Assembly (NCBI GenBank): GCA_023267195.1
Contig: JAHFNT010000002.1
Coordinates: 23,830 to 87,829 of the forward strand
DNA: 64,000 bases
From: Candidatus Nomurabacteria bacterium
GTDB lineage: Bacteria > Patescibacteriota > Minisyncoccia > Phycocordibacterales > UBA9973
Reading direction: 5' to 3'
Below, piece by piece: positions 3,379 through 64,000 of the stretch. The first letter of the stretch is position 1. Each line of letters starts with the position of its first letter. Below the pieces are notes generated by a model, which saw only the letters and a list, made by a program, of their open reading frames with translations, was not told the origin of the DNA and ran no database searches. The position numbers and the translations under genes were made by a program.

Positions 3379-6255
3379 ATGATTTCAAGGATATATGTGG
3401 CAGACAAGAAAGATCCAAAATTTGTGCAGTCATACCTCTTCACGCACTTCTTTTCCCCCCAAGAACTTACTAGAATTGCTAACGCGCTCACTAATCCGGT
3501 TTTAGAAAATTTTTCTATTAACTCATTTCCCAAGATTAAGAAAACTTTTGCCATGGAGATTGGCTTCAAGCCAGGTGTCACAGATAATGTGGCAAAAACA
3601 GTAAAAGAAACTGTTGTTGATCTCTTTCGGGGTAAGGCAAAACCATTTGAAATATATTCTTCTAAAATTTATTTTACTGAAACATCTTATAATCCGCTCA
3701 TTGAGCGAGCGCACATAGCTCTGAAAAAACACGGGGTAATTCATTTCCCTCTTGAAATTCCGAAGGTGGTTTTAAAAAAAGAAACACCAGTAATAAATAT
3801 CGATTTGGCAGTTTCCGATGAAGAGCTTCTGAAAATTAGCAGGGAGGGAGTAGCAAATAAAGATGGCCACGCCAAAGGACGGGCAGGCACTAGGCGTGGG
3901 CCACTGGCTCTTGATTTAGCATCAATGAAAACGATTCAGGAATATTTTAAAAAATTAAAAAGAAAGCCGACAGATATTGAATTGGAATCCTTGGCGCAAA
4001 CCTGGTCTGAACACTGCAAACATACTATTTTTGCCAACCCTATAGATGAAATAAAAGATGGCTTATATAAAACATACATTAAGGGTGCAACAAATTTAAT
4101 TCGTAAACAAAAAGTAGGCAAGGGGCAGCAAGATTTTTGTGTTTCGGTATTCAGTGACAATTCCGGCGGAATAATTTTTGATAAAGATTATTTGATTACC
4201 CATAAAGTAGAGACCCACAACAGCCCTTCAGCGCTGGATCCTTTTGGAGGAGCTATTACTGGAATAGTGGGAGTAAATCGCGACACTATTGGCTTCGGAC
4301 TCGGCGCCAAGCCGGTTGCGAATGTTTATGGTTTTTGTTTTGGATATCCCGAAGACAAAAAAAGATTTTTTAAAGATAAAAATTTACAGGAGGAAATGCT
4401 TCCACCAAAAAGAATTATAGATGGAGTAATTAAAGGCATAAATACTGGGGGCAATTGTTCGGGCATTCCAACCCTGTCTGGTTTTGTAAAATTTGATGAT
4501 AGATATCGCGCTAAACCTTTGGTTTTTGCTGGAACTGTAGGGTTAATTCCTAAAAAAATAAATGGTAAACCTTCGCATATGAAAAAAGCGGGGGTTGGCG
4601 ATTATGTAGTAGTGGTTGGTGGAAGAGTCGGTTTAGACGGGATTCACGGCGCGACATTCTCTTCAGTCGCAATGGATGCTAATTCACCCGCTACAGCGGT
4701 GCAAATAGGCGACCCAATAACTCAAAAGAAATTAAGTGATGCGATAATAAAAGAAGCAAGAGATCTAAGTTTATACACCAGTATCACTGACGACGGCGCT
4801 GGAGGATTGTCTTGTTCCGTGGCTGAAATGGCAAAGGAATCCGGCGGAGCAGAAGTTGATTTAGAAAAAGTGCCGCTTAAATATCCCGGTCTGCGCCCTT
4901 GGGAAATTTGGATTTCAGAATCACAGGAGCGCATGACGTTGTCTGTACCGAAAGATAAATGGAAAACTTTCCAGAAATTAATGGATAAAAGGGGGGTAGA
5001 AGCAACCATCATCGGAAAATTTACAAATTCTGGGAAATGTATCGTTAATTATAAAGGCAAAAAAATTATGGATATGGATATGGAATTCTTGCATGATGGA
5101 TTGCCGAAACATAATTTAACAACAGAAGCCATTTTACCCCTACCCAACCTCCCCCTTGGTAAGGGGGAGGAGAAAGGAGGGGGTCTAACCCAGACTCTAG
5201 AAAATTTACTTGCTCAAAAAAACATTTCTGGCTTTTCTTTTATCTCCGAGCAATACGATCACGAAGTGCAAGGAACATCTGTGTTGAAACCTCTCTCTGG
5301 GCGAGGCCGGATAAATACTGATGCGCAAGTTTTCAGGCCAGTTTTTAATTCAAATAAAGGAGTTGTGTTAACTTCTAGCACTTATCCTTCGTATGGAGAT
5401 ATTAGCACCTACCACATGGCTGCCTGTGCTATTGACACAGCCATAAGAAACATAGTTACCGCTGGCGGTAAACTTTCCCATTTAGCAATATTGGACAATT
5501 TCTGCTGGTGTTCGTCTAATGATCCTAGACGCCTAGCTCAGCTTAAAGATGCTGTGAAGGCTTGTTACGACTATGCTGTAGGATATAGTACACCATTTAT
5601 TTCTGGTAAGGACAGCATGTTTAATGATTTCAAAGGATACGACGAAAAGGGCAACCCTGTGGCTATTTCTATTCCTCCAACACTGCTTATTTCTGCTATT
5701 AGTGTTATGCCCAATTTACACAAAACAATCTCTCCTGAATTTAAAAAGGCTGGCGATATAATTTATTTGCTTGGAGAAACAAAGGACGAACTTGGTGGAG
5801 GAGAATATTTAAAAATGCTTGGAGTTGTTGGAAATAATGTGCCAAAAGTAAATTTAGAAAAAAACCTAAAAACATATCTGGTGCTGGAAAAAGCAATAGA
5901 AAAAGAACTCGTAGCTTCCGCACTTTCTGTAACTTCTGGTGGTATAGGAGTCGCGTTAGCTAAAGCATGCATTGGCGGAATGCTTGGTTGTAAAATCTCT
6001 TTAGACTCCATAGGCAAAGCCTACGGGGTGGATGTAAAATTGTTTTCCGAAAGCCAAGGGAGAATTTTAGTTTCAGTCCCTCCTAAAAATATTCCTGCAT
6101 TCGAAAAAATTATAAAAAATATTCCTCACACCAATTTAGGTAAGATTATAAAGGACGGAAAAATCATTGTAACGGCTGGAAAAAATAAAATTTTAGAAAC
6201 AAAAGTAAAAAAACTGCACAATGTTTATCATAGCTTTTCAGATAGTATGAAATAA
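3379..6255 (+). CDS. purL: Phosphoribosylformylglycinamidine synthase subunit PurL with fused PurS-like N-terminal domain
   Basis: PurL/AIR-synthase-related motifs are present (TGIVGVNRDTIGFGLGAKPVANVYGFCFGYPE; GGRVGLDGIHGATFSS). The PurS-like segment begins around MEIGFKPGVTDNVAKTV at 3553. The first 58 codons (3379-3552) have no recognisable similarity, so the true start may be 3553. Confidence 0.85.
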   Translation: MISRIYVADKKDPKFVQSYLFTHFFSPQELTRIANALTNPVLENFSINSFPKIKKTFAMEIGFKPGVTDNVAKTVKETVVDLFRGKAKPFEIYSSKIYFTETSYNPLIERAHIALKKHGVIHFPLEIPKVVLKKETPVINIDLAVSDEELLKISREGVANKDGHAKGRAGTRRGPLALDLASMKTIQEYFKKLKRKPTDIELESLAQTWSEHCKHTIFANPIDEIKDGLYKTYIKGATNLIRKQKVGKGQQDFCVSVFSDNSGGIIFDKDYLITHKVETHNSPSALDPFGGAITGIVGVNRDTIGFGLGAKPVANVYGFCFGYPEDKKRFFKDKNLQEEMLPPKRIIDGVIKGINTGGNCSGIPTLSGFVKFDDRYRAKPLVFAGTVGLIPKKINGKPSHMKKAGVGDYVVVVGGRVGLDGIHGATFSSVAMDANSPATAVQIGDPITQKKLSDAIIKEARDLSLYTSITDDGAGGLSCSVAEMAKESGGAEVDLEKVPLKYPGLRPWEIWISESQERMTLSVPKDKWKTFQKLMDKRGVEATIIGKFTNSGKCIVNYKGKKIMDMDMEFLHDGLPKHNLTTEAILPLPNLPLGKGEEKGGGLTQTLENLLAQKNISGFSFISEQYDHEVQGTSVLKPLSGRGRINTDAQVFRPVFNSNKGVVLTSSTYPSYGDISTYHMAACAIDTAIRNIVTAGGKLSHLAILDNFCWCSSNDPRRLAQLKDAVKACYDYAVGYSTPFISGKDSMFNDFKGYDEKGNPVAISIPPTLLISAISVMPNLHKTISPEFKKAGDIIYLLGETKDELGGGEYLKMLGVVGNNVPKVNLEKNLKTYLVLEKAIEKELVASALSVTSGGIGVALAKACIGGMLGCKISLDSIGKAYGVDVKLFSESQGRILVSVPPKNIPAFEKIIKNIPHTNLGKIIKDGKIIVTAGKNKILETKVKKLHNVYHSFSDSMK

Positions 6256-6285: not shown

Positions 6286-8028
6286 ATGACACAAAAAACA
6301 GAAAACCGAATATGCCAAAATTGTAAAAAAGATTTCGTCATTGAGCCGGAAGATTTTAATTTTTATGAAAAAATAAAAGTCCCTCCGCCAACTTTTTGCG
6401 CTGACTGTCGAGCGCAAAGAAGAATGAGTTTTATGAATGAACGAACTCTCTATAAAAGAAAATGTGATCTGACGGGTGGATCAATAATTTCTCTTTTTCC
6501 TGAAAATTCTGAAGTACCTGTGTATTCTCCTAAAGCGTGGTGGAGCGATGAATGGAATGCAATGGACTATGGACAAGAGTATGACTTTTCAAAACCTTTT
6601 TTTGAACAATTTAGTAAACTTTTGAGGCGAGTTCCGCAGTTTGCTCTCCAAAATCAATACACCACCCTGATTCGTACAGAATACGTGAATATGGGCACAA
6701 ATCTAAAAGACTGTTATATGGTATTCAATACTTCGTACAGCGAAGAATCAGCCTATACAACCTTTTTCCTGCATGGTAAAAAGTGTTTTGACATTTACAA
6801 AGGTGAAAAGCTTGAGCTTTGTTATGAAAGCTCACGACTGCATCAGTGTTATCGAGCTTTATACTGTGAGGATTCAGCCGATAGTTTTGATATTTCTTTT
6901 TCATACGACTTAAGAAATTGCAATAACTGTTTCGGGTGTTCGGGGTTGGTAGGCAAATCTTATTGTATTTTTAATCAACAACATACGAAAGAAGAATATG
7001 TTGAAGAAATTAAAAAATATAATCTTGGATCATACAAGACCGTAGAAGAGATAAAAAAGAAAGCAGAAAAAATAAGACAAACGCTTCCGAGAAGATTCAT
7101 GGAAGCAAGTCATAATGTAAATATAACTGGAAACAGGATATATAATTCCAAAAATTCTTATAACTGCTTTGAGGTAAACGGTCTTGAAAATAGTAAGTAT
7201 TGCCAATTTGTATATTACAAACCCGCACGGGATTGTTACGATATGACTTTGTGGGGACAAAATGCAACACGTGTTTATGAGTGTATGGGAGCGGGAGACA
7301 GCCAGGATATGATTAAGTTTTCCTTTGATTGTTGGGCGCCCGCAACGAACATTGAGTACTCGTATCACATTACTACACAAAATAAAAATCTTTTTGGTTG
7401 TGTTGGATTAAAAAATAAAGATTACTGTATTCTTAACAAGCAGTACACAAAAGAAGAGTACGAGGAGATGATTCCTAAAATAAAAAAACATATGGATGAA
7501 ATGCCTTACATAGATAAACGAGGGGTAGTTTACAAGTACGGAGAATTTTTCCCTTCAGAAATTTCACTTTTTGCCTATAATGAAAGTTTTGCTAATAGTT
7601 ACTTTCCTTTAGTGGAAGAAGAAGCAATTAAAAAAGGTTTCAGATGGAAAGAGATATCTATAAATAAATATGAGATTACCGTTACGGCCAAAGACTTGCC
7701 AGACGATATCAAGGACGTTGATGAGCCAATTTTAAACCAAGTTATTGAATGTGAAATTTCTAAACGGGCATTTCGCATAACCCCCTCAGAATTTCAATTC
7801 TACAAATCTATGAATATTCCACTTCCACGCCTTCATCCAGATGAACGCCATAAAAACAGATTAAGCAGAGAAAATCCACTGAAGCTCTGGCATAGAACTT
7901 GTATGTGCGATAAGGCAAATCATTATAATCATACAAGTCAATGCGAAGTAGAATTTGAAACAAGTTATGCGCCAGAGCGGCCAGAAATTATATACTGTGA
8001 AAAGTGTTATCAACAAGAAGTATATTAA
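6286..8028 (+). CDS. Cysteine-rich multi-zinc-ribbon protein, paralog P1 of a 5-member family of unknown function
   Basis: N-terminal zinc ribbon: CQNCKKDFVIEPEDFNFYEKIKVPPPTFCADCRAQRR. Duplicated core: NCNNCFGCSGLVGKSYCIFNQQHTKEEY and LFGCVGLKNKDYCILNKQYTKEEY. Also KHMDEMPYIDKRGVVYKYGEFFP and the C-terminus ETSYAPERPEIIYCEKCYQQEVY, all shared with P2-P5. Confidence 0.8.
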   Translation: MTQKTENRICQNCKKDFVIEPEDFNFYEKIKVPPPTFCADCRAQRRMSFMNERTLYKRKCDLTGGSIISLFPENSEVPVYSPKAWWSDEWNAMDYGQEYDFSKPFFEQFSKLLRRVPQFALQNQYTTLIRTEYVNMGTNLKDCYMVFNTSYSEESAYTTFFLHGKKCFDIYKGEKLELCYESSRLHQCYRALYCEDSADSFDISFSYDLRNCNNCFGCSGLVGKSYCIFNQQHTKEEYVEEIKKYNLGSYKTVEEIKKKAEKIRQTLPRRFMEASHNVNITGNRIYNSKNSYNCFEVNGLENSKYCQFVYYKPARDCYDMTLWGQNATRVYECMGAGDSQDMIKFSFDCWAPATNIEYSYHITTQNKNLFGCVGLKNKDYCILNKQYTKEEYEEMIPKIKKHMDEMPYIDKRGVVYKYGEFFPSEISLFAYNESFANSYFPLVEEEAIKKGFRWKEISINKYEITVTAKDLPDDIKDVDEPILNQVIECEISKRAFRITPSEFQFYKSMNIPLPRLHPDERHKNRLSRENPLKLWHRTCMCDKANHYNHTSQCEVEFETSYAPERPEIIYCEKCYQQEVY

Positions 8029-14951: not shown

Positions 14952-16478
14952 ATGAAAGGGATACAAATTCTGGTCGTAGATTACGGATCACAATATACTC
15001 TTGTTATCGGCAGAACATTGAGAGAGCTTGGGGTGAGGAGTGTAATTCTCCCACCCAAAAAAGCTGACGTATGGCTAAAAGAAAACAATCCAAAAGCAGT
15101 CATCCTTTCGGGCAGTAACTGGAGTGTACACAATACTGGAGCACCAGGATTGCCAAAGTCGCTCGATCTAAACGGGGAAAAATATTTTATTCTTGGCGTT
15201 TGTTATGGCATGCAGCTTCTGGCACATAAGCTTGGAGGAAAAGTAGAACGCCCACTCCTCCATCGCGAATATGGTCCGGCAATTGTAAATTTAACCGCTA
15301 AACATCCTCTTTGGGTTGGGGTTCCCAAAAAAACAACAGTCTGGGCAAGTCATGGAGATACGGTAAGCAATCTACCGAAAGGTTTTACCCCCATTGCCAA
15401 GTCCGGCGGATTTGCTGCTATGACAAATAAAAATAATCGCATGCTCGGAGTACAATTTCATCCTGAAGTAGCCGACACAAAAGAAGGAAAGAAAATACTA
15501 CAAAATTTTCTTAATTTAGCAAATTGCCAGAAAGACTGGGATCCGGTAAATTTAATTCATCAAATTCAAAAAGAGGTTCTGGGTATTGTAAAAGGGAAAG
15601 AGAAGGTGATATTAGGAGTTTCTGGTGGGGTTGATTCTACGACACTCGCAGCTGTCCTCACGCCCATTTTAAAAGATAGATTAATTTGTGTTGCGATAGA
15701 CACAGGAGGATTAAGACAAGATGAGATGGCAGAGTTAAAAGCAAACACCAAAAGCGCTGGTATAAAAAATCTTAAAATAATCACGGCTTCGGATGAATTC
15801 AGGAAAAATATCGGGACAACAATTGATGGAGAAGAGAAAAGAGCGCAGTTCAGAAAAATTTATAAAAAAATATTTGCAGAACAAATAAAAAAATATAGAG
15901 CTGATTTTATTGCGCAGGGAACTTTAGCTACCGACATAATAGAAAGCGGCCAGGTGGGGAAGTCGGCGATGATCAAAACTCATCATAACGTTGGGCTGAA
16001 ATGGAAAGTGGAAGACTTGCATCCATTTAGAAATTTATTTAAATATGAAGTCCGCGAACTTGCCAGAGCGCTCAAGCTTCCAAGGGCAGTATACGAACGC
16101 AACCCTTTCCCGGGACCAGGATTATATCTACGAGTCGTGGGTACGCCTGTGTCCAAAGAAAATATCGAGTTGGTGCGAGAAGCCGACAAAGCTGTGAACG
16201 AAATTATAAAGAAACATAATCTAGAAAAAGAAATTTCTCAGCTCATCGTGGCACTTCTTGGAATTAATTCTGTCGGCGTAAAAGGGGATGAAAGAGTTTA
16301 TGGCCATTCTCTAGCTATTCGCGCCGTGCAAACTGTGGATTTCATGACCGCTAAAGGCTATTATTTTTCTGAGGAAATTGTAAATGAAATCACCAGCGCT
16401 CTAACAAAACACAAAGGCATCGTCAGAGTGTTCTTTGATATGACACCCAAGCCCCCCGCTACCACAGAGTTTGAGTAG
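14952..16478 (+). CDS. guaA: GMP synthase (glutamine-hydrolysing)
   Basis: GATase domain (ILVVDYGSQYTLVIGRTL; GVCYGMQLL), the ATP-PPase SGGVDS motif and a C-terminal dimerisation domain. Confidence 0.9.
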   Translation: MKGIQILVVDYGSQYTLVIGRTLRELGVRSVILPPKKADVWLKENNPKAVILSGSNWSVHNTGAPGLPKSLDLNGEKYFILGVCYGMQLLAHKLGGKVERPLLHREYGPAIVNLTAKHPLWVGVPKKTTVWASHGDTVSNLPKGFTPIAKSGGFAAMTNKNNRMLGVQFHPEVADTKEGKKILQNFLNLANCQKDWDPVNLIHQIQKEVLGIVKGKEKVILGVSGGVDSTTLAAVLTPILKDRLICVAIDTGGLRQDEMAELKANTKSAGIKNLKIITASDEFRKNIGTTIDGEEKRAQFRKIYKKIFAEQIKKYRADFIAQGTLATDIIESGQVGKSAMIKTHHNVGLKWKVEDLHPFRNLFKYEVRELARALKLPRAVYERNPFPGPGLYLRVVGTPVSKENIELVREADKAVNEIIKKHNLEKEISQLIVALLGINSVGVKGDERVYGHSLAIRAVQTVDFMTAKGYYFSEEIVNEITSALTKHKGIVRVFFDMTPKPPATTEFE

Positions 16479-16490
16479 TATAATAAATTT

Positions 16491-18251
16491 ATGGAAAGCG
16501 AAACGAGAAAATGTCAAAACTGCAAAAAAGATTTCACCATCGAATCTGAAGATTTTAACTTTTACGAAAAAATAAAAGTGCCCCTGCCGACCTTTTGCCC
16601 ACTTTGCCGCGTACAGAGACGAATGGCCTTTAGAAATGAGCGGAAACTTTTTCGTGTCAAAGATGCTTTCACGGGTTTAGATATTTTTTCAACTTATCCA
16701 AAAGAGAGTGGAAGGAAAATTATTACACGAGAAGCTTGGTTTGGAGATAGCTGGGACGCCATGGAATATGAAACTGAATATGATTTTTCTAAACCATTCA
16801 TAAAGCAATTGATTGAAATTGAAATGAAAGTACCGATGTATAATTTCAATGTTTTAAGAATGGTCAACAGCCCTTATGCTTTTAATGCAACGGGACTAAA
16901 AAATAGTTACCTTGTTGTTAATTCAAATTACTCGGAAGACTGCATGTACGGGAATGCCATCGATCGTTGCAAGGATTGCGTAGACAATTCGCATGTAAAT
17001 CATTCTGAACGATGCTATGAAAGTTTCTGGTTAGAAAAATGTTATAAATGCTACTTTAGCCAAAGGTCAATGGACTCCAGAAATTTATGGTTTTGTCGAG
17101 GGTGTGTAGGATGTAATGATTGTTTTGGGAGTGTAAATTTACGTAAGGCTTCCTATTGCATTTTTAATAAGCAATATACCAAAGAGGAATATAAAAGAGA
17201 AATAGAAAAAATGAAATTAGACACTGATTCTGGGATTAAGGAAGCTAGAAAAAAAGCTCGCGATTTTTGGTTTACTCAGCCCGTCAAATATCATCAAGGG
17301 CTTAGAAATTTGAATTGCTCGGGTTCTTATGTTACCGATTGTAAAAATGTAAATGATAGCTATCTAGTCAGAGAAAGTGAGAATATGCGCTATTGTCAGT
17401 ATTTGCAAGTGCCTAAAAATAAAGATAATTACGATGTCACCAACTGGGGAGAAAATATTGAGCTTTGCTATGAAACAATGGAGTGTGGAGAAAATTCCTA
17501 CAACAATAAATTTTCTCGTAATTGTTGGCCTGCGTGTAGGAACAATGAATACTGCGTGCATCTTTTTAGTTCATCTGACTGTTTCGGCTGTGTTGGACTC
17601 AAAAAAAGGCAATATTGCATTTTAAATAAACAGTATTCTAAAGAAGAATATTTTACGATGGTAGAAAAAATTAAAAAACACATGAACGAAATGCCTTATG
17701 TGGATTCTCAAGGTATTGTTTATAAGTATGGAGAATTTTTTCCCATAGAAATTTCTCCTTTTGGCTACAATAATTCTATCGCTATGCAACATTTTCCTAT
17801 CAAAAAAGAGGAAGCTGAAAACAAAAAATATGGTTGGATAGAAATTGAAAGAGGGGAATATGTGATAACAAAAAAGGCGTCAGAATTTCCAGATTCTATA
17901 AGCGACGTAAACGATGAAATTTTAAAGGAAGTCATTGAATGTGAAAATTGCAAAAAAGCATATCGTATATTGGAAAATGAATTGATCTTTTATCGCAAAG
18001 AGAAACTCCCAATTCCTAGAATGTGCCATGATTGCAGACATGAACGGAGAATTAGCGATCGACTTACATTGCATTTGTACAAAAGATCTTGCATGTGCTC
18101 TGGAATATCTGACGAAACTAACACTTATAAAAATACTGTAAAACATGTTCATGGCGACGAACCGTGTAGTGAAGAGTTCAAGACAGGATACGCACCCAAT
18201 CAATCAGAAATAGTATATTGTGAAAAATGTTATCAGCAAGAGGTTTATTAG
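16491..18251 (+). CDS. Cysteine-rich multi-zinc-ribbon protein, paralog P2
   Basis: CQNCKKDFTIESEDFNFYEKIKVPLPTFCPLCRVQRR; CNDCFGSVNLRKASYCIFNKQYTKEEY; SDCFGCVGLKKRQYCILNKQYSKEEY. The C-terminal ribbon copy is IECENCKKAYRILENELIFYRKEKLPIPRMCHDCRHERR. The protein ends ...IVYCEKCYQQEVY. Confidence 0.8.
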   Translation: MESETRKCQNCKKDFTIESEDFNFYEKIKVPLPTFCPLCRVQRRMAFRNERKLFRVKDAFTGLDIFSTYPKESGRKIITREAWFGDSWDAMEYETEYDFSKPFIKQLIEIEMKVPMYNFNVLRMVNSPYAFNATGLKNSYLVVNSNYSEDCMYGNAIDRCKDCVDNSHVNHSERCYESFWLEKCYKCYFSQRSMDSRNLWFCRGCVGCNDCFGSVNLRKASYCIFNKQYTKEEYKREIEKMKLDTDSGIKEARKKARDFWFTQPVKYHQGLRNLNCSGSYVTDCKNVNDSYLVRESENMRYCQYLQVPKNKDNYDVTNWGENIELCYETMECGENSYNNKFSRNCWPACRNNEYCVHLFSSSDCFGCVGLKKRQYCILNKQYSKEEYFTMVEKIKKHMNEMPYVDSQGIVYKYGEFFPIEISPFGYNNSIAMQHFPIKKEEAENKKYGWIEIERGEYVITKKASEFPDSISDVNDEILKEVIECENCKKAYRILENELIFYRKEKLPIPRMCHDCRHERRISDRLTLHLYKRSCMCSGISDETNTYKNTVKHVHGDEPCSEEFKTGYAPNQSEIVYCEKCYQQEVY

Positions 18252-55765: not shown

Positions 55766-56637
55766 AAATATTTTTTGGTAAGTGAATTATAAGTATCGGT
55801 GCGGCGATTACGCAGGAAACCCCATTCTTCGGCAATTTGTTCATTGCTCCCTAAATTAATTTTGGAAATTAAAATTTCATCTTTGAACTTCCCCGCTCGC
55901 TTGATTATCTTGCCAAACGCATCACAGACAAAAGACTGCCCCCAGAATTTCAATTTATCTTCTTGGCCAACGCGATTGACTGCCGCAACATGTAAGCTGT
56001 TCGCTATGGCATGAGCGCGCATGCTAGTCTCCCAAGCCTCATGCCAATCCCCCTCCTTCTGTTTTTCGCCAACTATCGTTCCAATTGCCGTTGGATAGAA
56101 AATTAATTCTGCCCCAGAGAGCTTGACCGCGCGCGCCGCTTCGGGAAACCATTGATCATAACAAATGAGAACCGCAAAAGTAGCATATTCTGTTTTATAT
56201 ATTTTGTATCCATCTTTGCTGTCTTCAAAATAATTTTTTTCGTAAAAAAGAGGATCCTGCGGCACATGGATTTTCCTATAGGTTGGCATCAGTCTTCCGT
56301 CAATGTTTATTACTGCAGCTGAATTATGAAAACGGCCATTACTGTCTTTTTCAAAAACCGGCACGATAATTACAACCTTATGTTTTTTGGCAATCGCCGA
56401 AAAGACTTCGGTTGATTCCCCGGGAATTGTTTCAGAAAAATTATCTTTTTTGGCATTTTTATATTGCGGAAAGTAGGGAGTCCTATAAAGCTCCTGCAGG
56501 CAAATAATCTGCGCACCCTTTTTGGCCGCCTGTTCTACTAATTTCGCAGTTTTAGCTAAATTAACATTCAAGTCGGGCGATACGCTAGTCTGAATTCCTG
56601 CAACTATAACAAATTTATTTTTCATTTTATTGTTCAT
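55762..56637 (-). CDS. aguB: N-carbamoylputrescine amidase (carbon-nitrogen hydrolase family)
   Basis: A nitrilase-superfamily fold with an E-K-C triad context (QIICLQELY; VLICYDQWFPE). It lies directly downstream of aguA. Confidence 0.75.
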   Translation of the reverse strand: MNNKMKNKFVIVAGIQTSVSPDLNVNLAKTAKLVEQAAKKGAQIICLQELYRTPYFPQYKNAKKDNFSETIPGESTEVFSAIAKKHKVVIIVPVFEKDSNGRFHNSAAVINIDGRLMPTYRKIHVPQDPLFYEKNYFEDSKDGYKIYKTEYATFAVLICYDQWFPEAARAVKLSGAELIFYPTAIGTIVGEKQKEGDWHEAWETSMRAHAIANSLHVAAVNRVGQEDKLKFWGQSFVCDAFGKIIKRAGKFKDEILISKINLGSNEQIAEEWGFLRNRRTDTYNSLTKKYL

Positions 56638-57226
56638 TTCTGAAATATAACATATTTAAAATTTTCTTGCGATACAAAAAACAAACCATAATAATATTAG
56701 CAATTATCAGGTATAAACCAAATGAGTATATGGTAAAAGACCAATTTTTTATAATGAGCAAACCAAGAGTATTATTAAAAATTCCCGACAAATAAACAGT
56801 CGCCGTTTCAGTCTCCGGAAATTTCCATCCTTTAATATAAGTCGGTATAAAAGCGAAAAGATCGCTCAAAATTGCAAAAATAATTGATACTGCCAAATTA
56901 TGCGTTAATGCATACAATATTAATGCGAGCACAGAAAATATTCCGCAAATTATATCAAAAGTATTTAATTTCCAATATGCATTTTTTCTGAAAATTGAAA
57001 AGACAACAACAAGCAAGGGTCCAAGGCCGGCCATAAATACGGGTATTACAGAAAGGCCAGCCCCCGCTTTGAGTTGAAAAAATACGCCCAGAAAAGGGCC
57101 CAGTAACCAAAGAAACCAGGAAACCAAGTTAGGTTTAGTCGTTCCTAGAAAAATATTTTTAAAATAAAAAAAATATCCTATTAAGCTGACAAGAACTGCA
57201 ATATAAATTATTTTTTCCGGAAGCAT
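56627..57226 (-). CDS. Polytopic membrane protein, hypothetical
   Basis: 199 aa with five or six hydrophobic helices. It sits between the P4 paralog and aguB in the same-strand string. Confidence 0.45.
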   Translation of the reverse strand: MLPEKIIYIAVLVSLIGYFFYFKNIFLGTTKPNLVSWFLWLLGPFLGVFFQLKAGAGLSVIPVFMAGLGPLLVVVFSIFRKNAYWKLNTFDIICGIFSVLALILYALTHNLAVSIIFAILSDLFAFIPTYIKGWKFPETETATVYLSGIFNNTLGLLIIKNWSFTIYSFGLYLIIANIIMVCFLYRKKILNMLYFRNEQ

Positions 57227-57227
57227 A

Positions 57228-58937
57228 TTAATTAAATTCAGCTTGATAACATTTTACGCAATACACAATTTCGGGTCGGCCTGGTTTGTATGGAGTATAA
57301 ATTTCCGTTTCGCATTTTGCACAATTGCGATGATATAGCCCTGGTTTTGTCATTCTAATAAATCTCTTATCTTGTCGGCATTTTGGACATTCGTGTGGCG
57401 CTGGCAACCCCATTTTATGGAGTAAATCCAATTCGCCTTGGACTATTTTATACGCTCGTTTACAATTTGAGCACTCTATCACTTCTTCTAAAATTGAGTC
57501 TTGAGTTTCTTTAATTTTTTCTGGCAAATCTGCAGCTTTGATCGTAGGCTCCGCGGTTGGATTATCTTCATCACTCCATGTGTAGCCAAGGGACAGTGTC
57601 TGCTCTTTTGTTTTTGGAAAAAAGCGCATTGCATTTGATTTGTTATATGGAAACTGACTCATTTCTGACGGGAAAAATTCTCCATAGAAAAATTTACGGC
57701 CAAGCTTGTCCAGATATGGATTACTTTTCATGTCTGCAATTATTTCTTCTTTTAACTTTTCATATTCTTTTTTAGAATATTCTTTGTTTAAAATACAATA
57801 TTTTTTCCTCTTTAAACTAACGCAGCCGAAATTATCTTTCCCAGAAATTACATAATTACAATATGTGAGATTCAAAACATCTGGAAATGAATTCGCTGAA
57901 AAGAGCACTGTATCCGCGCCTTCTCCCACGTTCTGACACTCATAAATTTGTGATGCGCTTTGCCCCCAGCCAGAATAATCGTAACAATCCTTGGCTGTCG
58001 CTACGGTTATGAACTGACACCACTTACAATTCTCTGCATAATTTACGATATATCCTTCTTTGGAATTTTTTGAGCGGAAAGTATATTCCCCAGTCACATT
58101 TAAATTAAATGTATGCCCATGATATTCTCTGTATGGCTTCATAAGCCAAAACTCATAAGCCTTTTTTTCTACCTCTCGCAAGCCAGACCAGGTGTCTAGT
58201 TTCATATCTTTTATTTTTTCTTCATATTCTTCTTTTGAATATTTAACATTAAAAATAGAATTGGTCGCACCGCGTAGATTTACGCACCCTATACAATTAG
58301 TGCAACCATAACAGTTGCGGGAAAACCACACATCCACACAATTTTCTGATTCATCAGAGAAAAAAGTTCTGTAATTATTTATAAAACCTATTGATTCATA
58401 ACACAATTCCGAATCCCACCCCCTAATGCAGTCAGAGCTAAATCTTAATTTGTTTAGTATCGTAGAATAAAAAACAGATTCACAGTAGTCGGCCCAAAAT
58501 ACAAGATAACAATTTTTACAAGAACCCAGGTGATTACAATATTCAGAATTTTTAAGAGTCGTGTAGGAACTCTGAAGAGCGGGAAACGGGACTTCGGACA
58601 TTAGTTCTTTAATTTGGTCAAAAAATGGACGCGTCCTATCATACTCTTTCGCGAATTCTGTCCCATCCCAAGAATCACCCCACCAGCATGGTTGGCAATA
58701 TATTTTTATCCTATCTCCCGATGAGTACATAGATAAAACCCTTTTCTCGCATTTTTTGCATTTATTCCAAAATAAATTCCAAGTATTAGTAAAAGACCAT
58801 CTGCGAATCAGACGACACTCTGGGCAAAACGTCGGTGCTGGAACTTTTATTTTTTCATAAAAATTAAAATCTTCGGGTTCGATGGTGAAATCCTTCTTGC
58901 AATTCTGACATATTTTGGTTTCACTTTTATGTTCCAT
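57228..58937 (-). CDS. Cysteine-rich multi-zinc-ribbon protein, paralog P4 (most divergent member)
   Basis: CQNCKKDFTIEPEDFNFYEKIKVPAPTFCPECRLIRR; CTNCIGCVNLRGATNSIFNVKYSKEEY; FGCVSLKRKKYCILNKEYSKKEY; the C-terminal ribbon IECSNCKRAYKIVQGELDLLHKMGLPAPHECPKCRQDKR; ends ...IVYCVKCYQAEFN. Confidence 0.8.
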   Translation of the reverse strand: MEHKSETKICQNCKKDFTIEPEDFNFYEKIKVPAPTFCPECRLIRRWSFTNTWNLFWNKCKKCEKRVLSMYSSGDRIKIYCQPCWWGDSWDGTEFAKEYDRTRPFFDQIKELMSEVPFPALQSSYTTLKNSEYCNHLGSCKNCYLVFWADYCESVFYSTILNKLRFSSDCIRGWDSELCYESIGFINNYRTFFSDESENCVDVWFSRNCYGCTNCIGCVNLRGATNSIFNVKYSKEEYEEKIKDMKLDTWSGLREVEKKAYEFWLMKPYREYHGHTFNLNVTGEYTFRSKNSKEGYIVNYAENCKWCQFITVATAKDCYDYSGWGQSASQIYECQNVGEGADTVLFSANSFPDVLNLTYCNYVISGKDNFGCVSLKRKKYCILNKEYSKKEYEKLKEEIIADMKSNPYLDKLGRKFFYGEFFPSEMSQFPYNKSNAMRFFPKTKEQTLSLGYTWSDEDNPTAEPTIKAADLPEKIKETQDSILEEVIECSNCKRAYKIVQGELDLLHKMGLPAPHECPKCRQDKRFIRMTKPGLYHRNCAKCETEIYTPYKPGRPEIVYCVKCYQAEFN

Positions 58938-58970
58938 ATTTTTGCATATACGCTATAGCGTAGATTAATA

Positions 58971-60725
58971 TTAGTACACTTCTTGCTGGTAACATTTTTC
59001 ACAATAAATCACCTCTGGCCGACCGGGCGCATAACTTGTTTCAAATTCTACCTCGCAATTCCCCGCCGCATGATTTGCATGATTTTCCTTATCACACATA
59101 CAACTTCTGTGCCATAGTTTCATTGGATTACGAACTTTCAACCTTGCATCATGACGACAACCAAAGCAAAGACGAGGTATCGGCACCCCTATTCTTTTAT
59201 ACAACCTAAATTCATCTTCTGTGATTCTAAACGCCCCAGAACAGCGATCTCCGCATTCTCTATTGTGTAAACAACTGATGATTTCTTTTGGGATAGATTC
59301 TTGTACGTCTTTAAAACTATCAGGCAGATCTTCGGCTTGTATTGTTATTTGATATTCATTGGTCTTTTTATCTCGCCATCTATATCCCCTTTTGAGAGCT
59401 TCATCTTTTGTTAAAGGAAAATAATCTTGAGCCTGGGTTTCATTGTAGCAAAATGTGGATAATTCCGATGGAAAAAATTCTCCATATTTATAAATGAGAC
59501 CTTTCTTGTCGACATACGACATTGTATTCATGTGCTCAATAATCTTCGGTAAAAGTTTTTCATATTCTTCTTTACTGTATTGTTTATTTAAAATACAATA
59601 ATTTTTATTTCTAAGGCCAATACAGCCAAATAAATTAGAGCAATTAAAACAATAAAAAGAATATTCAACATTTTTGGAACTGTAAACCACATTCGTAAAA
59701 AGACTACGAAAAGAACCCAGACCACCGTCAAAAACTTCATACATCAATTCACCAATACCTACCCCGGGACCCGCATCATACGAATCCTTGATCCGCAGAG
59801 CCCAGTGAAGATATTTAGAATCTTCAACCTGTCCGGCTGTGTCAAAACTATTTTGACAATTTTTTGTCCCTTCAAGATTATCACCCGTAGAATTTACGAC
59901 TTTTATTTGATTGGTAAAACGATGTAAGGCATTCAAATAAAATTCTTTAAATTTTTTATGCAATCTAAGAATAGTTGAATAACTGGTTAGATCAAGTCCA
60001 GCTAAACGCTTGGCATATTCTTCTTTGGAAAGTTGCTCATTCCACATACAATATGACTTGTTTCGGAGATTCGTACACCCAAAACAATTTATACAACCAT
60101 GACAATCGTACAGAAAGTACGAATCCACGCAATTCTTACAATTTAAAGAATACAAAACGTGATAACAATCTGAACAAAATATATCGTCATAACAAAGCTC
60201 AGAACGATGAACAACATATAAATCGGAACTATCCTTAATTTCTGAAACTCTATTGGAATAAAATGTTTTTTCTATTATAAAACACGCTGAAGTCATATAA
60301 CTATCTTTGCTATCTTCCGCGACATTACAATAATCACTATTTACTGCTTTTGAATTCGAAAGAGATTGTTGGGGAAAAATATCTCTCAATTCTTTCCATT
60401 GTTCAAAAAACGGCTTAGAAAAATTATATTCTTTGCCGTAAGCAACAGCGTCCCAACTATCACTCCACCAGTATTTTATGTCATAAACCACAAGTTTTTC
60501 ATCAGGATGATATATTGTAATAATATCTTCATGGTGACTAGAAGCATCGTTTTTTCTTTTATAAAGAGACATTTCGTTTCTCCAACACAAACGTCTAATG
60601 GTGCGGCATTCTGGGCAAAAAGTCGGCGGGGGGACTTTTATTTTTTCGTAAAAGTTAAAATCTTCGGGCTCTATGATAAAGTCTTGTTTACAGTTTTGAC
60701 ATATTTTATTTTCACTTTTATACAT
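58971..60725 (-). CDS. Cysteine-rich multi-zinc-ribbon protein, paralog P5 (tandem with P4)
   Basis: CQNCKQDFIIEPEDFNFYEKIKVPPPTFCPECRTIRR; CINCFGCTNLRNKSYCMWNEQLSKEEY; LFGCIGLRNKNYCILNKQYSKEEY; ends ...VIYCEKCYQQEVY. Confidence 0.8.
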   Translation of the reverse strand: MYKSENKICQNCKQDFIIEPEDFNFYEKIKVPPPTFCPECRTIRRLCWRNEMSLYKRKNDASSHHEDIITIYHPDEKLVVYDIKYWWSDSWDAVAYGKEYNFSKPFFEQWKELRDIFPQQSLSNSKAVNSDYCNVAEDSKDSYMTSACFIIEKTFYSNRVSEIKDSSDLYVVHRSELCYDDIFCSDCYHVLYSLNCKNCVDSYFLYDCHGCINCFGCTNLRNKSYCMWNEQLSKEEYAKRLAGLDLTSYSTILRLHKKFKEFYLNALHRFTNQIKVVNSTGDNLEGTKNCQNSFDTAGQVEDSKYLHWALRIKDSYDAGPGVGIGELMYEVFDGGLGSFRSLFTNVVYSSKNVEYSFYCFNCSNLFGCIGLRNKNYCILNKQYSKEEYEKLLPKIIEHMNTMSYVDKKGLIYKYGEFFPSELSTFCYNETQAQDYFPLTKDEALKRGYRWRDKKTNEYQITIQAEDLPDSFKDVQESIPKEIISCLHNRECGDRCSGAFRITEDEFRLYKRIGVPIPRLCFGCRHDARLKVRNPMKLWHRSCMCDKENHANHAAGNCEVEFETSYAPGRPEVIYCEKCYQQEVY

Positions 60726-60727
60726 AA

Positions 60728-61834
60728 TTAGATTCCCTCTTTTTTGAGTTCTTCTACCACCTCGCGAGCTTTGCGGGAAAGCTTGCCGGGAAGTTTGATA
60801 TGCAACTTGATTAAGAGATCACCACGCTTACCCTTGCCAAAAGGCACGCCCTTTCCTCTGACGCGCAATATTTCGTTGACTGACACACCCTCTGGAATCG
60901 TCACTTCGATTTCCCCGTCTAAAGTTTGTATGGTATGCTTGGTGCCCAAAAGCGCATCAGATAACTTTATGTTCAAATTCATCACCAGGTCATTGCCATC
61001 ACGTCTGAAAACTGGATGCGGTATGACATTTATTTTTATATACAGATCGCCGGTTGTGCCTTTGGAGATCGCTTCACCATAGCCAGTCATTCGCACCATT
61101 TCCCCATCTCTCATACCGGAAGGAATAACAATTGAAATTTCTTCTTCCCGTCTAAGCACGCCCTTGCCTTTGCAATTTTCGCAAAGCTCCTTTGGCACTT
61201 GGCCAGCTCCAAGACATACTTCACAAGTTTTCGTACTGCCAATATTCCCAAAAATAGTCCTTTTGGACTCATGAATTTTCCCTTGCCCATTGCAGTGTTT
61301 GCAAGTTTCCATTTTCGTTCCAGCTTTGGCGCCAGAACCATTACACGTCAGGCATTTAGAAGTTTTAGTAATCAAAATTTTTCTAGTCGTGCCAAAAATA
61401 GCATCCGCAAAAGAAATCTGCATCTCTGTAGAAATATCACGGCCTCGGCGCTGCTGTGTTCTACCCCCTCCCTGACCCCCCATTGCCCCTCCGAAAAAAT
61501 CACTAAAGATATCGTTTAAATTTCCAAAATCAAATTCTACCCCACCATTTCCAAAGCCCTCAGCGCCACTGAAATCGAAACCTCCAAAACCTTGCCCAGC
61601 CCCACCATAGCCCTGACCCATATTTTCAAAACCAGATCCGAACTGATCGTATTTGGAACGCTTTTCATCATCAGAAAGGACTTGGTACGCCTGATTTACT
61701 TCTTTAAATTTCGCCTCATTTCCCCCTTTCTTGTCGGGATGATATTTATGCGCCAGCTTATAAAAAGCCTTTTTAATTTCATCCTTTGACGCGCTCTTAT
61801 TTACTCCCAAAATTTCATAATAATCTTGTTTCAT
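60728..61834 (-). CDS. dnaJ: Molecular chaperone DnaJ
   Basis: J domain (DYYEILGVNKSASKDEIKKAFYKLAHKYHPDKK), G/F-rich linker, four CxxCxGxG zinc-finger repeats, and the C-terminal substrate-binding domains. Confidence 0.9.
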   Translation of the reverse strand: MKQDYYEILGVNKSASKDEIKKAFYKLAHKYHPDKKGGNEAKFKEVNQAYQVLSDDEKRSKYDQFGSGFENMGQGYGGAGQGFGGFDFSGAEGFGNGGVEFDFGNLNDIFSDFFGGAMGGQGGGRTQQRRGRDISTEMQISFADAIFGTTRKILITKTSKCLTCNGSGAKAGTKMETCKHCNGQGKIHESKRTIFGNIGSTKTCEVCLGAGQVPKELCENCKGKGVLRREEEISIVIPSGMRDGEMVRMTGYGEAISKGTTGDLYIKINVIPHPVFRRDGNDLVMNLNIKLSDALLGTKHTIQTLDGEIEVTIPEGVSVNEILRVRGKGVPFGKGKRGDLLIKLHIKLPGKLSRKAREVVEELKKEGI

Positions 61835-61841
61835 GGTTCTT

Positions 61842-63413
61842 TTATATCATAGGCTCAGCTTCTTGTGAAGCTTTTTTATTGGAAATTTTTTTCTCTCCGA
61901 CCTCTATGTCGGAGTCCGACTCTGGTCGGACTTGTTTTTCTTCAACACTTTCCTCAATATTTTCTCCCTCTTCAATTTTACTTCCATTTTTTTCTTTTTC
62001 TTTTCTTTTCGCCCGTCCTTCTATGATTGCTTTTTCTTCAGCGCTGCGAATGATGGTAGCTTCTTCTTCGGCAATCAATTTGGCTGCATCATCTCTAGAG
62101 ATTGAATATTTTCTACGGGATGCGTCTAATATTTGTTGTCTGAAGGACGGGTGGGTAGGCGGAAGAACTTTCAGGGTTTCTGCGGAAAATGGATCATAGG
62201 ATTCTCCGTCAATTGTCATTTTGATATAAAATTCAGTCACTGCCAGGTTGATCATATCCTTGATATCAAACACCGGAGAGAATTCTGGTTTCATTTTTAC
62301 TGCGTCTTCACCTCCAATACGAAAAGTAATGATACTTCCGCAGTTACCGAGCACCGCCTGGTGAACCTTTGTTAAAATTTGCCCGACATATTGATGCGCC
62401 ATGGTCAAATTGAGTCCGTATTTGCGCGCCTCTGATAATATATTTTCAAAAGTCTGAGTTACGACGTTCTGGAACTCGTCCACGTAGAGATAGAAATCTG
62501 TACGATCTTGTTCGGGAATAGCGGCCCGCTCCATTCCAGCTTGTTTTATTTTTGTTAAAAATATAGAACCAAGGAAAGAAGAATTTTCTTCGCCTAGTCT
62601 GCCTTTTGAAAGATTAATGAAAATTATTTTTCCCTCATTCATCAATTTGCTAATATCTATTTTATTTTGCTTCTGGCCGAAAATATTGCGCAGGAGCGGA
62701 TCCGAAAGAAATTGGCCAAGCTTGTTCACGAGAGGAATGATGGCATCAGTGTCAAATTTTTCTGACCAATCGGCGAATTCAATAGCGAAGAATCTTTTCA
62801 CCATGTCGTCGGTAATATATTCCACCACTTTCTGCCGGTAATTTCTGTCCGTCAACATCGAGATCATCCCGCGCATCGTCGCATGCGGATAATCAAGCAA
62901 AGCTAAACAGGTAAAACGAAAAACGTGTTCTAGGCGAGGAGTCCAATTAGCGCCGAATTGTTTTTGAAAAACTTCAATCAAACCCTGAGTCAACTGAAAC
63001 TTAAACATCGGATCCACATTGGCCAAAGGATTAAAAGACGCCGGAAAATCAATATCGGCTGGATCTATAATGCACACATCTTCAATACGATCTTCGGGAA
63101 TATAATCAAGCATTGAATCGATGACATCCCCGTGCGGATCAATCAAGCAAAGTCCATGCCCATAAGAAACATCCTGACGGATAAAAAGCTCCAGAAGTTT
63201 GGTTTTACCAACTCCAGACTTACCAATAATATAGAGATGTCTTCGGCGGTCTATGCGCTTGATACCAAAAACGAATTTCTTTTCTTCCAGTGAGGCTACA
63301 TAATTCGTGCGCCCAATAAAAGAAACCTCTCGCGGATCAACTTTACCGAAGACGGGCAATTCTGGCGGAGGCGGAGCATATTTTATTATCTGTACTCTAT
63401 TGGGCTTCGGCAT
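61842..63413 (-). CDS. HerA/FtsK-superfamily P-loop ATPase (DUF87/TraD-VirD4-like) with Lys/Glu-rich C-terminal tail
   Basis: Walker A (IIGKSGVGKTKLLE), Walker B-like (FYLYVDEFQNV), and a charged low-complexity tail (EEKAIIEGRAKRKEKEKNGSKIEEGENIEESVEEK). Confidence 0.6.
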   Translation of the reverse strand: MPKPNRVQIIKYAPPPPELPVFGKVDPREVSFIGRTNYVASLEEKKFVFGIKRIDRRRHLYIIGKSGVGKTKLLELFIRQDVSYGHGLCLIDPHGDVIDSMLDYIPEDRIEDVCIIDPADIDFPASFNPLANVDPMFKFQLTQGLIEVFQKQFGANWTPRLEHVFRFTCLALLDYPHATMRGMISMLTDRNYRQKVVEYITDDMVKRFFAIEFADWSEKFDTDAIIPLVNKLGQFLSDPLLRNIFGQKQNKIDISKLMNEGKIIFINLSKGRLGEENSSFLGSIFLTKIKQAGMERAAIPEQDRTDFYLYVDEFQNVVTQTFENILSEARKYGLNLTMAHQYVGQILTKVHQAVLGNCGSIITFRIGGEDAVKMKPEFSPVFDIKDMINLAVTEFYIKMTIDGESYDPFSAETLKVLPPTHPSFRQQILDASRRKYSISRDDAAKLIAEEEATIIRSAEEKAIIEGRAKRKEKEKNGSKIEEGENIEESVEEKQVRPESDSDIEVGEKKISNKKASQEAEPMI

Positions 63414-63457
63414 GTAAATTATTGATTACTTAATGTTAAAAGTATATCATATAAAAT

Positions 63458-64000
63458 ATGAAATTACATAGATTTATTGGAGATTTCGACCTCGCCAAAA
63501 ATGAAATAGAAATCACCAACCCTGAAAATATCAAGCAAATAAAGGGTGTTTTGAGAATGGAAAAAGGCGAGAAAATCATTCTGTCGGACGGCAAAGGAAA
63601 TGAAGCAGAGGCTGTGCTGGCTTTTGTTTCGGCAGAGAAAATCATCTGCTTTCTGAAAAAAATAAATAACCAAAAAGAATTGACTAGAAAAGTAAATTTA
63701 TATTTAGCCATTTTGAAAAAAGAGAATTTTGAACTGGCTGTACAAAAAGCAACCGAAATTGGGGTCTCTAATATTACACCGATAATTACCGAGAGAACAA
63801 TTAAGACCGGGTTGAATATCCCCCGTCTACAAAAAATTATATTGGAAGCAAGCGAACAGTCTGGCAGAAACATTTTACCTACTCTGTCCCTTGTTTTAGA
63901 TTTTCCGGTGGCCCTGGCGTATGGCAGCGCGGCGCCGGAGAAAATAATATTTCATCTAGGGCATAAAATGTATGAGGCAAATGAAAAATCAAAAAGCATA
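63458..64000 (+). CDS. rsmE: 16S rRNA (uracil1498-N3)-methyltransferase RsmE (3' partial, runs off window)
   Basis: My own translation: MKLHRFIGDFDLAKNEIEITNPENIKQIKGVLRMEKGEKIILSDGKGNEAEAVLAFVS... This is the RsmE PUA-like N-terminus and SPOUT fold. The ORF is not in the track because it has no stop within the window. Confidence 0.7.
   Translation, partial: MKLHRFIGDFDLAKNEIEITNPENIKQIKGVLRMEKGEKIILSDGKGNEAEAVLAFVSAEKIICFLKKINNQKELTRKVNLYLAILKKENFELAVQKATEIGVSNITPIITERTIKTGLNIPRLQKIILEASEQSGRNILPTLSLVLDFPVALAYGSAAPEKIIFHLGHKMYEANEKSKSI

Follow-up and report, generated by a model that had tools for sequence, protein, structure and literature searches.

We analysed a 64,000-nucleotide stretch of a Candidatus Nomurabacteria contig (JAHFNT010000002.1; hereafter the window, with a GC content of about 0.38), in which the list of open reading frames (ORFs) contains five intact paralogs, P1 to P5, of a cysteine-rich protein of about 580 amino acids (aa). 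The paralogs share 42-48% pairwise identity and together occupy about 8.7 kb of the window, where tblastn revealed no sixth copy or fragment of the family. We found that each protein is laid out as a predicted pair of treble-clef zinc modules (A-B), two central units of about 150 aa each (U1 and U2), a region X and a second treble-clef pair (A'-B'). We consider it probable that these are zinc-stabilised modular proteins that arose through at least two separate repeat events and serve as scaffolds or adaptors. The structural and evolutionary part of this explanation we hold with high confidence; the functional part, a scaffold or adaptor role that would likely involve VirD4-like ATPases, is put forward tentatively from sequence and genome context.

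The N-terminal ribbon recurs near the C-terminus of all five paralogs, as a preliminary description of this sequence had claimed, and by HHalign about 85 N-terminal aa match about 95 C-terminal aa. Residues 1-55 compared with 471-540 gave Smith-Waterman z scores of 12-19, and for no paralog did a single one of 2000 shuffles score as high. With an alignment of 113 family sequences, HHalign aligned P1 residues 5-86 with 484-576 (99.1%, E 5e-19, 82 columns), which indicates that the echo spans two consecutive zinc modules, A and B, and not one. The central unit is likewise doubled in every paralog (residues 101-290 versus 291-470, z = 7.6-19; HHalign on the same alignment 99.7%, E 1e-25, 98 columns). 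Using a more diverse alignment of 84 sequences, we recovered the match between M1 and M2, the coil portions of U1 and U2 (99.9%, E 5e-32, 96-98 columns), between A and A' (99.4%, E 2e-21) and between B and B' (97.1%, E 7e-11). Furthermore, the helix preceding M1 (104-130) matches the helix preceding M2 (255-279; HHalign 79%, E 2e-5). Domain-by-domain comparison with the 84-sequence alignment found no relation between A and B, and region X (398-483) has no internal HHalign partner past its first 11 residues. Self-BLASTP of each paralog returned no off-diagonal high-scoring segment pair (HSP) under the settings used, and Smith-Waterman against shuffles together with HHalign was used instead.

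The coordinates given for the duplication in the preliminary description (6286-8028) are those of P1, but the peptides quoted there belong to P2 (16491-18251). The duplicated central unit, at about 100 aa or about 150 aa counting the leading helix, is longer than the 27-aa motif by which it had been recognised, and the KEEY motifs of the two copies lie 148-154 aa apart, not about 170. Two copies of the motif are indeed present in each protein, but they are degenerate: copy 2 lacks the first two cysteines in P1 and P4 (NLFGC and DNFGC), copy 1 lacks YCI in P4 and reads CFMC...YHF in P3.

By sequence comparison, the modules follow the mirrored order A-B / U1-U2 / X / A'-B', with A-B and A'-B' more than 400 residues apart on opposite sides of the U pair. 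Because this order is mirrored and X is unpaired, whereas duplication of a half protein is expected to give A-B-U-A'-B'-U', we conclude that at least two separate duplications took place. One, which produced U1-U2, was an in-frame tandem duplication; in the second, an A-B cassette of about 85 aa would have been copied to the opposite end of the protein. The repeats are found family-wide by HHalign and homologues cover the whole profile, in agreement with the initial view that the duplication is ancient. The family falls into 5,214 clusters when grouped at 50% identity (E<=1e-3), and the 150 best representatives all do so, evident fragments aside, which places both duplications before the radiation of the family. 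Internal duplication is by itself an ordinary trait of repeat proteins.

Next, we examined the terminal modules. The suggestion that they are treble-clef-type zinc fingers was borne out by Pfam matches to zf_Tbcl and zf_Tbcl_2 and by the predicted topology in two AlphaFold2 models, those of P1 (predicted local distance difference test (pLDDT) 86.1, predicted template modelling score (pTM) 0.88) and P3 (87.6 and 0.88), whose termini exceed pLDDT 90. According to DSSP, all four modules have the same topology in both models: a beta-hairpin knuckle holds the first cysteine pair, and a helix begins at the second CxxC. For module A, these elements are strands 6-9 and 16-19 with C10 and C13 and helix 39-47 with C38 and C41 in P1, and strands 4-7 and 14-17 and helix 37-46 with C36 and C39 in P3. 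The zf_Tbcl family (PF13451) matches 39 of 40 homologous N-terminal segments at E<=0.1 (best 5e-5) and 31 of 84 full-length members (best 2.5e-6); for the P1 N-terminus taken alone, the score is 22.6 bits (E 1e-4), with a gathering cutoff of 24 bits. Of the C-terminal segments, 23 of 40 match zf_Tbcl_2 (PF23477), as do 8 of 40 N-terminal ones; in the P1 C-terminal segment the match covers residues 81-108. Scores for PF23477/TIGR04272 stay below the cutoffs of 27 and 36 bits in P4 (19.8/19.5 bits), P3 (14 bits) and the P1 C-terminus (15.2 bits); elsewhere in the family the best E is 4e-7, and 36 of 84 members match at E<=0.1.

P4 shows the CxxC-x17-CxxC spacing in both B and B', and P3 shows it in B. 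It is absent from P1, where B keeps one cysteine and B' carries an 11-residue insertion. Small archaeal CxxC-x17-CxxC proteins from Methanosarcina mazei bind zinc, as measured by inductively coupled plasma mass spectrometry (ICP-MS) (PMC12704099). In BFVD, phage proteins named 'putative zinc-ribbon domain' superpose on the ribbon at 0.6-0.7 A. We also searched for LIM domains, defined as C-x2-C-x16-23-H-x2-C-x2-C-x2-C-x16-21-C-x2-C/H/D with two contiguous fingers, and found no match above cutoff, 7 of 40 C-termini matching weakly (best 0.002) and the PDB LIM protein CRP at E 0.5.

Most members carry insertions in the first knuckles, B' reading C-x-C-x4-H-x-H-x4-C instead of CxxC (7900-7960 in P1) and A' reading C-x-H-x-G-x-C-x3-C. 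Conservation of the extra cysteines and histidines in these insertions is 60-80%, and they might constitute an additional site.

To count metal sites, we aligned 414 full-length homologues to the hidden Markov model (HMM) of the family. All four cysteines are present at site A in 93% of them, at A' in 73% and at B' in 96%. Site B has four cysteines in 194, none or one in 215 and two or three in only 5, an all-or-none pattern that is the behaviour of real four-ligand sites. The earlier count of six to eight CxxC pairs as several zinc sites was thus too generous: only four sets (A, B, A' and B') behave in this way, and the paralogs keep two (P1: A and B'), three (P2 and P5) or four (P3 and P4) of them. 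P1 has lost three of four cysteines both at A' (CEIS...HPDE) and at B. From these patterns, the family is predicted to have up to four Cys4 zinc sites, one per treble clef, lost as whole units in some subfamilies.

The cysteines of the centre follow another rule. The autocorrelation of the M1 profile peaks at every multiple of 3, with its maximum at 12, and the conserved M1 cysteines (143, 155, 167, 170, 179 ... 218, 227) all fall in one modulo-3 register over about 85 residues. DSSP bridges recur each 6-12 residues in the P1 and P3 models. These patterns point to each U being a narrow beta-solenoid with 12-residue coils and a small inward residue, mostly cysteine, at each third position, in which the 'CFGC...YCI.NKQY.KEEY' unit would form the last coil of a block together with its cap helix. 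M1 also contains a weak sub-repeat of 45 residues (E 0.002-0.008), which was set aside, being better accounted for by the 12-residue period. Central cysteine positions exchange with S, T, V, A, L or I, and this free exchange, together with the graded cysteine counts, fits core positions. Foldseek against PDB returned nothing for the centre below E 0.01. Region X, with a mean identity of 49% among the paralogs, has no Pfam or PDB match.

Another explanation is that the central cysteine-rich modules bind metals or an Fe-S cluster, in the manner of a metallothionein or a cluster scaffold, the proteins being a metal store, a sensor or a redox protein. Members contain 20-47 cysteines (mean 34), the M1 CxxCxxCxxC run (P3 209-218) keeps three or four cysteines in 385 of 414 homologues, AlphaFold confidence is lowest in M1, as expected with a missing cofactor, and a CutA1 gene adjoins the family in 6 loci. 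However, most central cysteine positions swap with V, L, I, T or A, and the M2 stretch equivalent to the run has only one or two cysteines. Nor is the spacing of the ferredoxin 4Fe-4S type, CxxCxxCxxC lacking the following CP of CxxCxxCxxxCP, and neither Fer4 nor any other Fe-S Pfam family matched. We therefore regard metal or cluster binding by the centre as doubtful. The CutA1 (divalent-ion tolerance) gene lies at a median of 75 nt from the family gene in these 6 of 79 loci (for example at 5566-5994 of locus L007).

P1 is matched by more than 7,973 clusters formed at 90% identity; almost all are called 'hypothetical protein' and two are called 'Zn ribbon nucleic-acid-binding protein', with Nomura-, Staskawicz-, Lipton- and Paceibacteria as attached organisms. 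Scanning GTDB with a single genome for each species gave at least 585 loci. By almost all informative labels among the 79 loci examined, the family is found only in Patescibacteria (candidate phyla radiation, CPR). One contig of a metagenome-assembled genome (MAG) labelled Burkholderiales (JAMPXW010000002.1, locus L062) carries three family copies and the ATPase/dnaJ locus described below; since almost all other informatively labelled loci are from Patescibacteria, this label is probably a binning or labelling error. In other Patescibacteria genomes, as many as 6-8 copies stand in tandem on one strand; L011, L021, L032, L065 and L072 have such arrays with 4-8 full-length copies, some copies being split or truncated.

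We found no whole-protein counterpart in Pfam, NCBIfam, PDB (by sequence), BFVD or Foldseek against PDB, none of the five paralogs reached a curated Pfam or NCBIfam cutoff, and none had a PADLOC anti-phage defence match below E 0.02. Literature searches retrieved no description of the family and nothing relevant for PF13451 or for Parcubacteria combined with 'zinc ribbon'. A viral origin was rejected, as IMG/VR holds only one partial family locus; in PHROGs the five paralogs hit only a weak unnamed family, and tblastn of P2 and the homologue P0203 against phage genomes returned nothing. No membrane or signal segment was detected, no hydrophobic 19-mer exceeding 1.46 on the Kyte-Doolittle scale, and the paralogs are predicted to be soluble and cytoplasmic, with no recognised catalytic domain or motif. 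Patescibacteria have small genomes, yet about 8.7 of the 64 kb of this window go to five copies of one unnamed protein. The module map separates likely zinc ligands from core cysteines and shows which paralogs lost sites.

To survey the neighbourhood, we clustered the ORFs within 6 kb of family genes at the 79 loci. The commonest neighbour is an apparently soluble VirD4/TraD-like FtsK-HerA ATPase, encoded on the same strand at a median distance of 200 nt in 29 loci. An ATPase, dnaJ or dnaK gene is present in 31 loci (dnaJ in 14, dnaK in 6), and the recurrent order is dnaK, long ATPase, several family genes, short ATPase, dnaJ, family gene and a gene for a 200-aa protein that has no Pfam or NCBIfam match. 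Examples of this conserved locus are L016, L039, L017, L019, L062 and L085. The right end of the window (56627-63997) is the same locus, with the short ATPase, dnaJ, P5, P4 and then a 199-aa ORF; rsmE and a long ATPase with zf_Tbcl_2 follow just past its end (beyond 64000). The CxxC-x17-CxxC finger of the long ATPase scores 59.6 bits against a cutoff of 36 and matches the ribbon-B HMM of the family, and the same protein has a long P/K/E-rich tail.

A survey of 2,918 Patescibacteria genomes reported 5,713 homologues of type IV coupling proteins (T4CPs), about 2 per genome, most of them distant from virB4 and possibly exapted (PMC12102498). At that density, and assuming a genome of about 1 Mb, a 14-kb window should contain one in about 3% of cases. 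On that assumption of genome size, the 37% that we observed (29 of 79) indicates a strong enrichment of the ATPase beside family genes. This genomic association, undescribed in the literature searched, is suggestive, and it bears on the 'orphan' VirD4-like ATPases, the role of which in Patescibacteria is an open question (PMC12102498).

Identity among the paralogs is highest in A (72%) and B' (63%) and lowest in M1 (34%) and M2 (37%). Under the scaffold or adaptor hypothesis, the conserved terminal zinc cassettes would be binding heads for a common partner, and the fast-diverging solenoid surfaces would provide paralog-specific recognition. Family members might act in this way, probably alongside the neighbouring VirD4-like ATPases that share zf_Tbcl_2 and are encoded in the dnaK-dnaJ locus. 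More speculatively, the family, the two exapted soluble VirD4-like ATPases that bracket its arrays and DnaK/DnaJ could constitute a Patescibacteria-specific system absent from the sources searched, in which dozens of diversified solenoid adaptors would deliver proteins or nucleic acids as substrates to a hexameric translocase. As a further possibility, the change from Cys4 to a [C/D]-H-E site in P1-type proteins could have brought a new, possibly catalytic or sensing, role.

The same neighbourhood invites two other explanations. The first is that the family members are zinc-dependent co-chaperones or holdases of the DnaK system. Arrays do lie between dnaK and dnaJ in several genera, and the zinc centres and CFGCxG knuckle are, as we presume, reminiscent of the DnaJ Cys-rich domain and of Hsp33. 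However, the proteins have neither a J domain nor a DnaJ_CXXCXGXG Pfam match, and most copies are found elsewhere in the genome, making a chaperone role unlikely. The second is that they are type IV secretion-like substrates (effectors), which the coupling-protein homologues encoded next to them would recognise for export to the host cell. VirD4/TraD-like genes bracket arrays in the 29 loci, and in these episymbiotic bacteria the family has expanded and is diversifying. But the one ATPase that we inspected by eye (from L076) has a polar N-terminus and no obvious membrane segment, and the family proteins combine four tightly folded zinc modules with no signal sequence. Furthermore, the distance of most Patescibacterial T4CP homologues from virB4, and the finding that the homologue of S. 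epibionticum is dispensable for epibiotic growth (PMC12102498), also speak against export, which we judge to be quite unlikely.

As to the origin of the repeats, the preliminary description had proposed a pseudo-dimer, generated by a single tandem duplication of a half protein and carrying six to eight CxxC pairs as several zinc sites. Each module type does occur twice, and CxxC is found 10-14 times in P2-P5 (5 times in P1). Yet the order is mirrored, X is unpaired, A is unrelated to B and only U1-U2 is in tandem. Furthermore, only four Cys4 sets are all-or-none, two of them intact in P1, and the central cysteines, which keep to a single modulo-3 register, give way in other members to S, T, V, A, L or I. 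We find this origin highly improbable. That the repeats are mere chance or low-complexity likeness among cysteine-rich segments, as the silent self-BLASTP might suggest, has a negligible probability, given that none of 1000-2000 shuffles reached the observed score in nearly all tests, that HHalign E values run from 1e-11 to 5e-32 and that the P3 N-terminus finds its own C-terminus by tblastn at E 3e-10.

Several observations weigh against the explanation that we favour, zinc-stabilised modular scaffolds or adaptors with a solenoid centre. M1 (6676-6987 in P1) is the least confident stretch of the AlphaFold models of P1 and P3 (pLDDT 58-74), and the CxxCxxC(xxC) run at P1 209-218, conserved in 83-94% of the diverse set, may be an extra metal or cluster site. 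P1-type orthologues, down to about 53% identity, conserve [C/D]-S-H-E at the ligand positions of A' and C-T-S-A at those of B. As the scaffold is retained without Cys4, a changed ligand set is possible, and in P1-type proteins A' may have switched its metal ligands instead of losing the site. With isoelectric points (pI) of 6.2-7.3, the paralogs do not look like strong binders of nucleic acids. No ATPase lies within 6 kb in about 60% of the loci sampled, and P1-P3, three of the five paralogs, are not beside an ATPase but inside purine and cell-wall clusters. The function itself is something that we infer throughout.

The features of the window that bear on this analysis are collected in Table 1.

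Table 1. Family genes, neighbouring genes and P1 modules, in window coordinates (res, residues; SW, Smith-Waterman).
Feature	Position	Strand	Description
P1	6286..8028	+	580 aa, between purL and purQ; ORF, AlphaFold model, flanks by Pfam
P1 module A	6298..6441	+	res 5-52; predicted zf_Tbcl-like treble clef, C10/C13/C38/C41 then RxxRR; Cys4 complete
P1 module B	6442..6555	+	res 53-90; predicted degenerate CxxC-x17-CxxC treble clef; only C60 left, ligand positions C-T-S-A
P1 unit U1	6595..7014	+	res 104-243; predicted leading helix, about 8 coils (M1, 131-234) and KEEY cap helix; motif copy 1 at 6919-6999
P1 unit U2	7048..7476	+	res 255-397; tandem copy of U1 (M2, 286-388); motif copy 2 at 7381-7461
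P1 region X	7477..7734	+	res 398-483; conserved, unique (PYxDxxGxxYKYGEFFPxExSxFxYNE...)
P1 module A'	7735..7881	+	res 484-532; copy of A, ligand positions C-S-H-E, scaffold conserved; SW z = 11.7
P1 module B'	7882..8025	+	res 533-580; copy of B, 11-residue insertion in first knuckle (C539-x-C541...H...H...C553; C571xxC574)
P2	16491..18251	+	586 aa, flanked by guaA and purH; Cys4 intact at A, A' and B'
P3	35665..37413	-	582 aa, starts with GTG; flanked by mraY and a VanY-type peptidase gene; Cys4 intact at all four sites
P4	57228..58937	-	569 aa; all four Cys4 sites intact; B' with canonical CxxC-x17-CxxC spacing
P5	58971..60725	-	584 aa; tandem with P4, immediately downstream of dnaJ
dnaJ	60728..61834	-	Pfam DnaJ, DnaJ_C, DnaJ_CXXCXGXG
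Short VirD4/TraD-like FtsK-HerA ATPase	61842..63413	-	Pfam TrwB_AAD_bind, T4SS-DNA_transf; NCBIfam TraD/VirD4-like below cutoffs

Three of the paralogs are embedded in tightly packed housekeeping clusters (purL-P1-purQ, guaA-P2-purH and mraY-P3-VanY), with intergenic gaps of 1-30 nt. P1 and P2 interrupt an otherwise contiguous purine-biosynthesis cluster at 3379-23835, in which P1 and its purQ neighbour are followed by purF. Here the end of purL (6255) precedes the P1 start (6286), the likely purQ ATG (8030) follows the P1 stop (8028), guaA ends at 16478 before the P2 start at 16491, and the likely purH ATG (18266) follows the P2 stop (18251). These tiny gaps suggest that the purine genes share their transcripts with P1 and P2. 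We rejected the reading of the paralogs as mobile elements, as gaps of 1-30 nt leave no space for element ends and no nuclease or transposase match was found.

Compared with known families, the solenoid most resembles in its repeat the Tenebrio antifreeze protein (1EZG; 12-residue repeat PF02420), which likewise has 12-residue coils with small inward residues at every third position; spruce budworm antifreeze protein (AFP; 1M8N) and the Lolium ice-recrystallisation inhibition (IRI) protein (3ULT) are other narrow cysteine-containing beta-solenoids that we compared. In contrast to the insect-AFP type, the family proteins have no PF02420 match and no TxT ice-binding face, and consist of two capped blocks flanked by zinc fingers; their predicted cytoplasmic location also makes disulfides unlikely, unlike in that type. 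The left-handed beta-helix hexapeptide acyltransferases and gamma-carbonic anhydrases have coils of 18 residues, whereas the family period is 12 with no Hexapep Pfam match and Foldseek E >0.01; the fold matches obtained were generic only.

Among phage proteins of unknown function, phrog_15341 is matched by 50 of 84 family members in the solenoid region (best E 2.6e-11). We considered it as a phage version of the U1-U2 core and rejected it, since the matches shift register, on M1 or M2, and indicate likeness of repeat type only. The family consensus searched with tblastn against phage genomes gave only E ~0.01 matches, to CxxC-repeat proteins of Campylobacter and Vibrio phages. One of them, Campylobacter phage CPt10_1641 (L083 2881-3306), is a small, weakly M1-like protein (E ~0.01) that is almost wholly (CxxC)n (CKDCLNCFNCVDCYKCIDC...) and has annotated insect-antifreeze Pfam matches.

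Modules A and A' share with zf_Tbcl (PF13451, 'probable treble clef domain') the pattern CxxC, about 24 residues including F..FY...P, then CxxCR. In this family, however, the module is fused to a second treble clef, the resulting cassette stands at both ends of a 580-aa protein, and the P1 A' copy has no Cys4. Likewise, B and B' share with zf_Tbcl_2 (PF23477/TIGR04272) its spacing and the '..P...RP.(I/V)YC..C' signature, but most B' copies have an 11-22-residue insertion (C-x-C...H-x-H) in the first knuckle and B is without cysteines in about half of the members. Finally, the neighbouring ATPases share with the type IV coupling proteins VirD4, TraD and TrwB the FtsK-HerA P-loop core and matches to TrwB_AAD_bind, T4SS-DNA_transf and TraG-D_C. 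They differ from these in scoring far below the NCBIfam cutoffs, in lying in a dnaK-dnaJ locus and, for one type, in carrying zf_Tbcl_2 and a P/K/E-rich tail.

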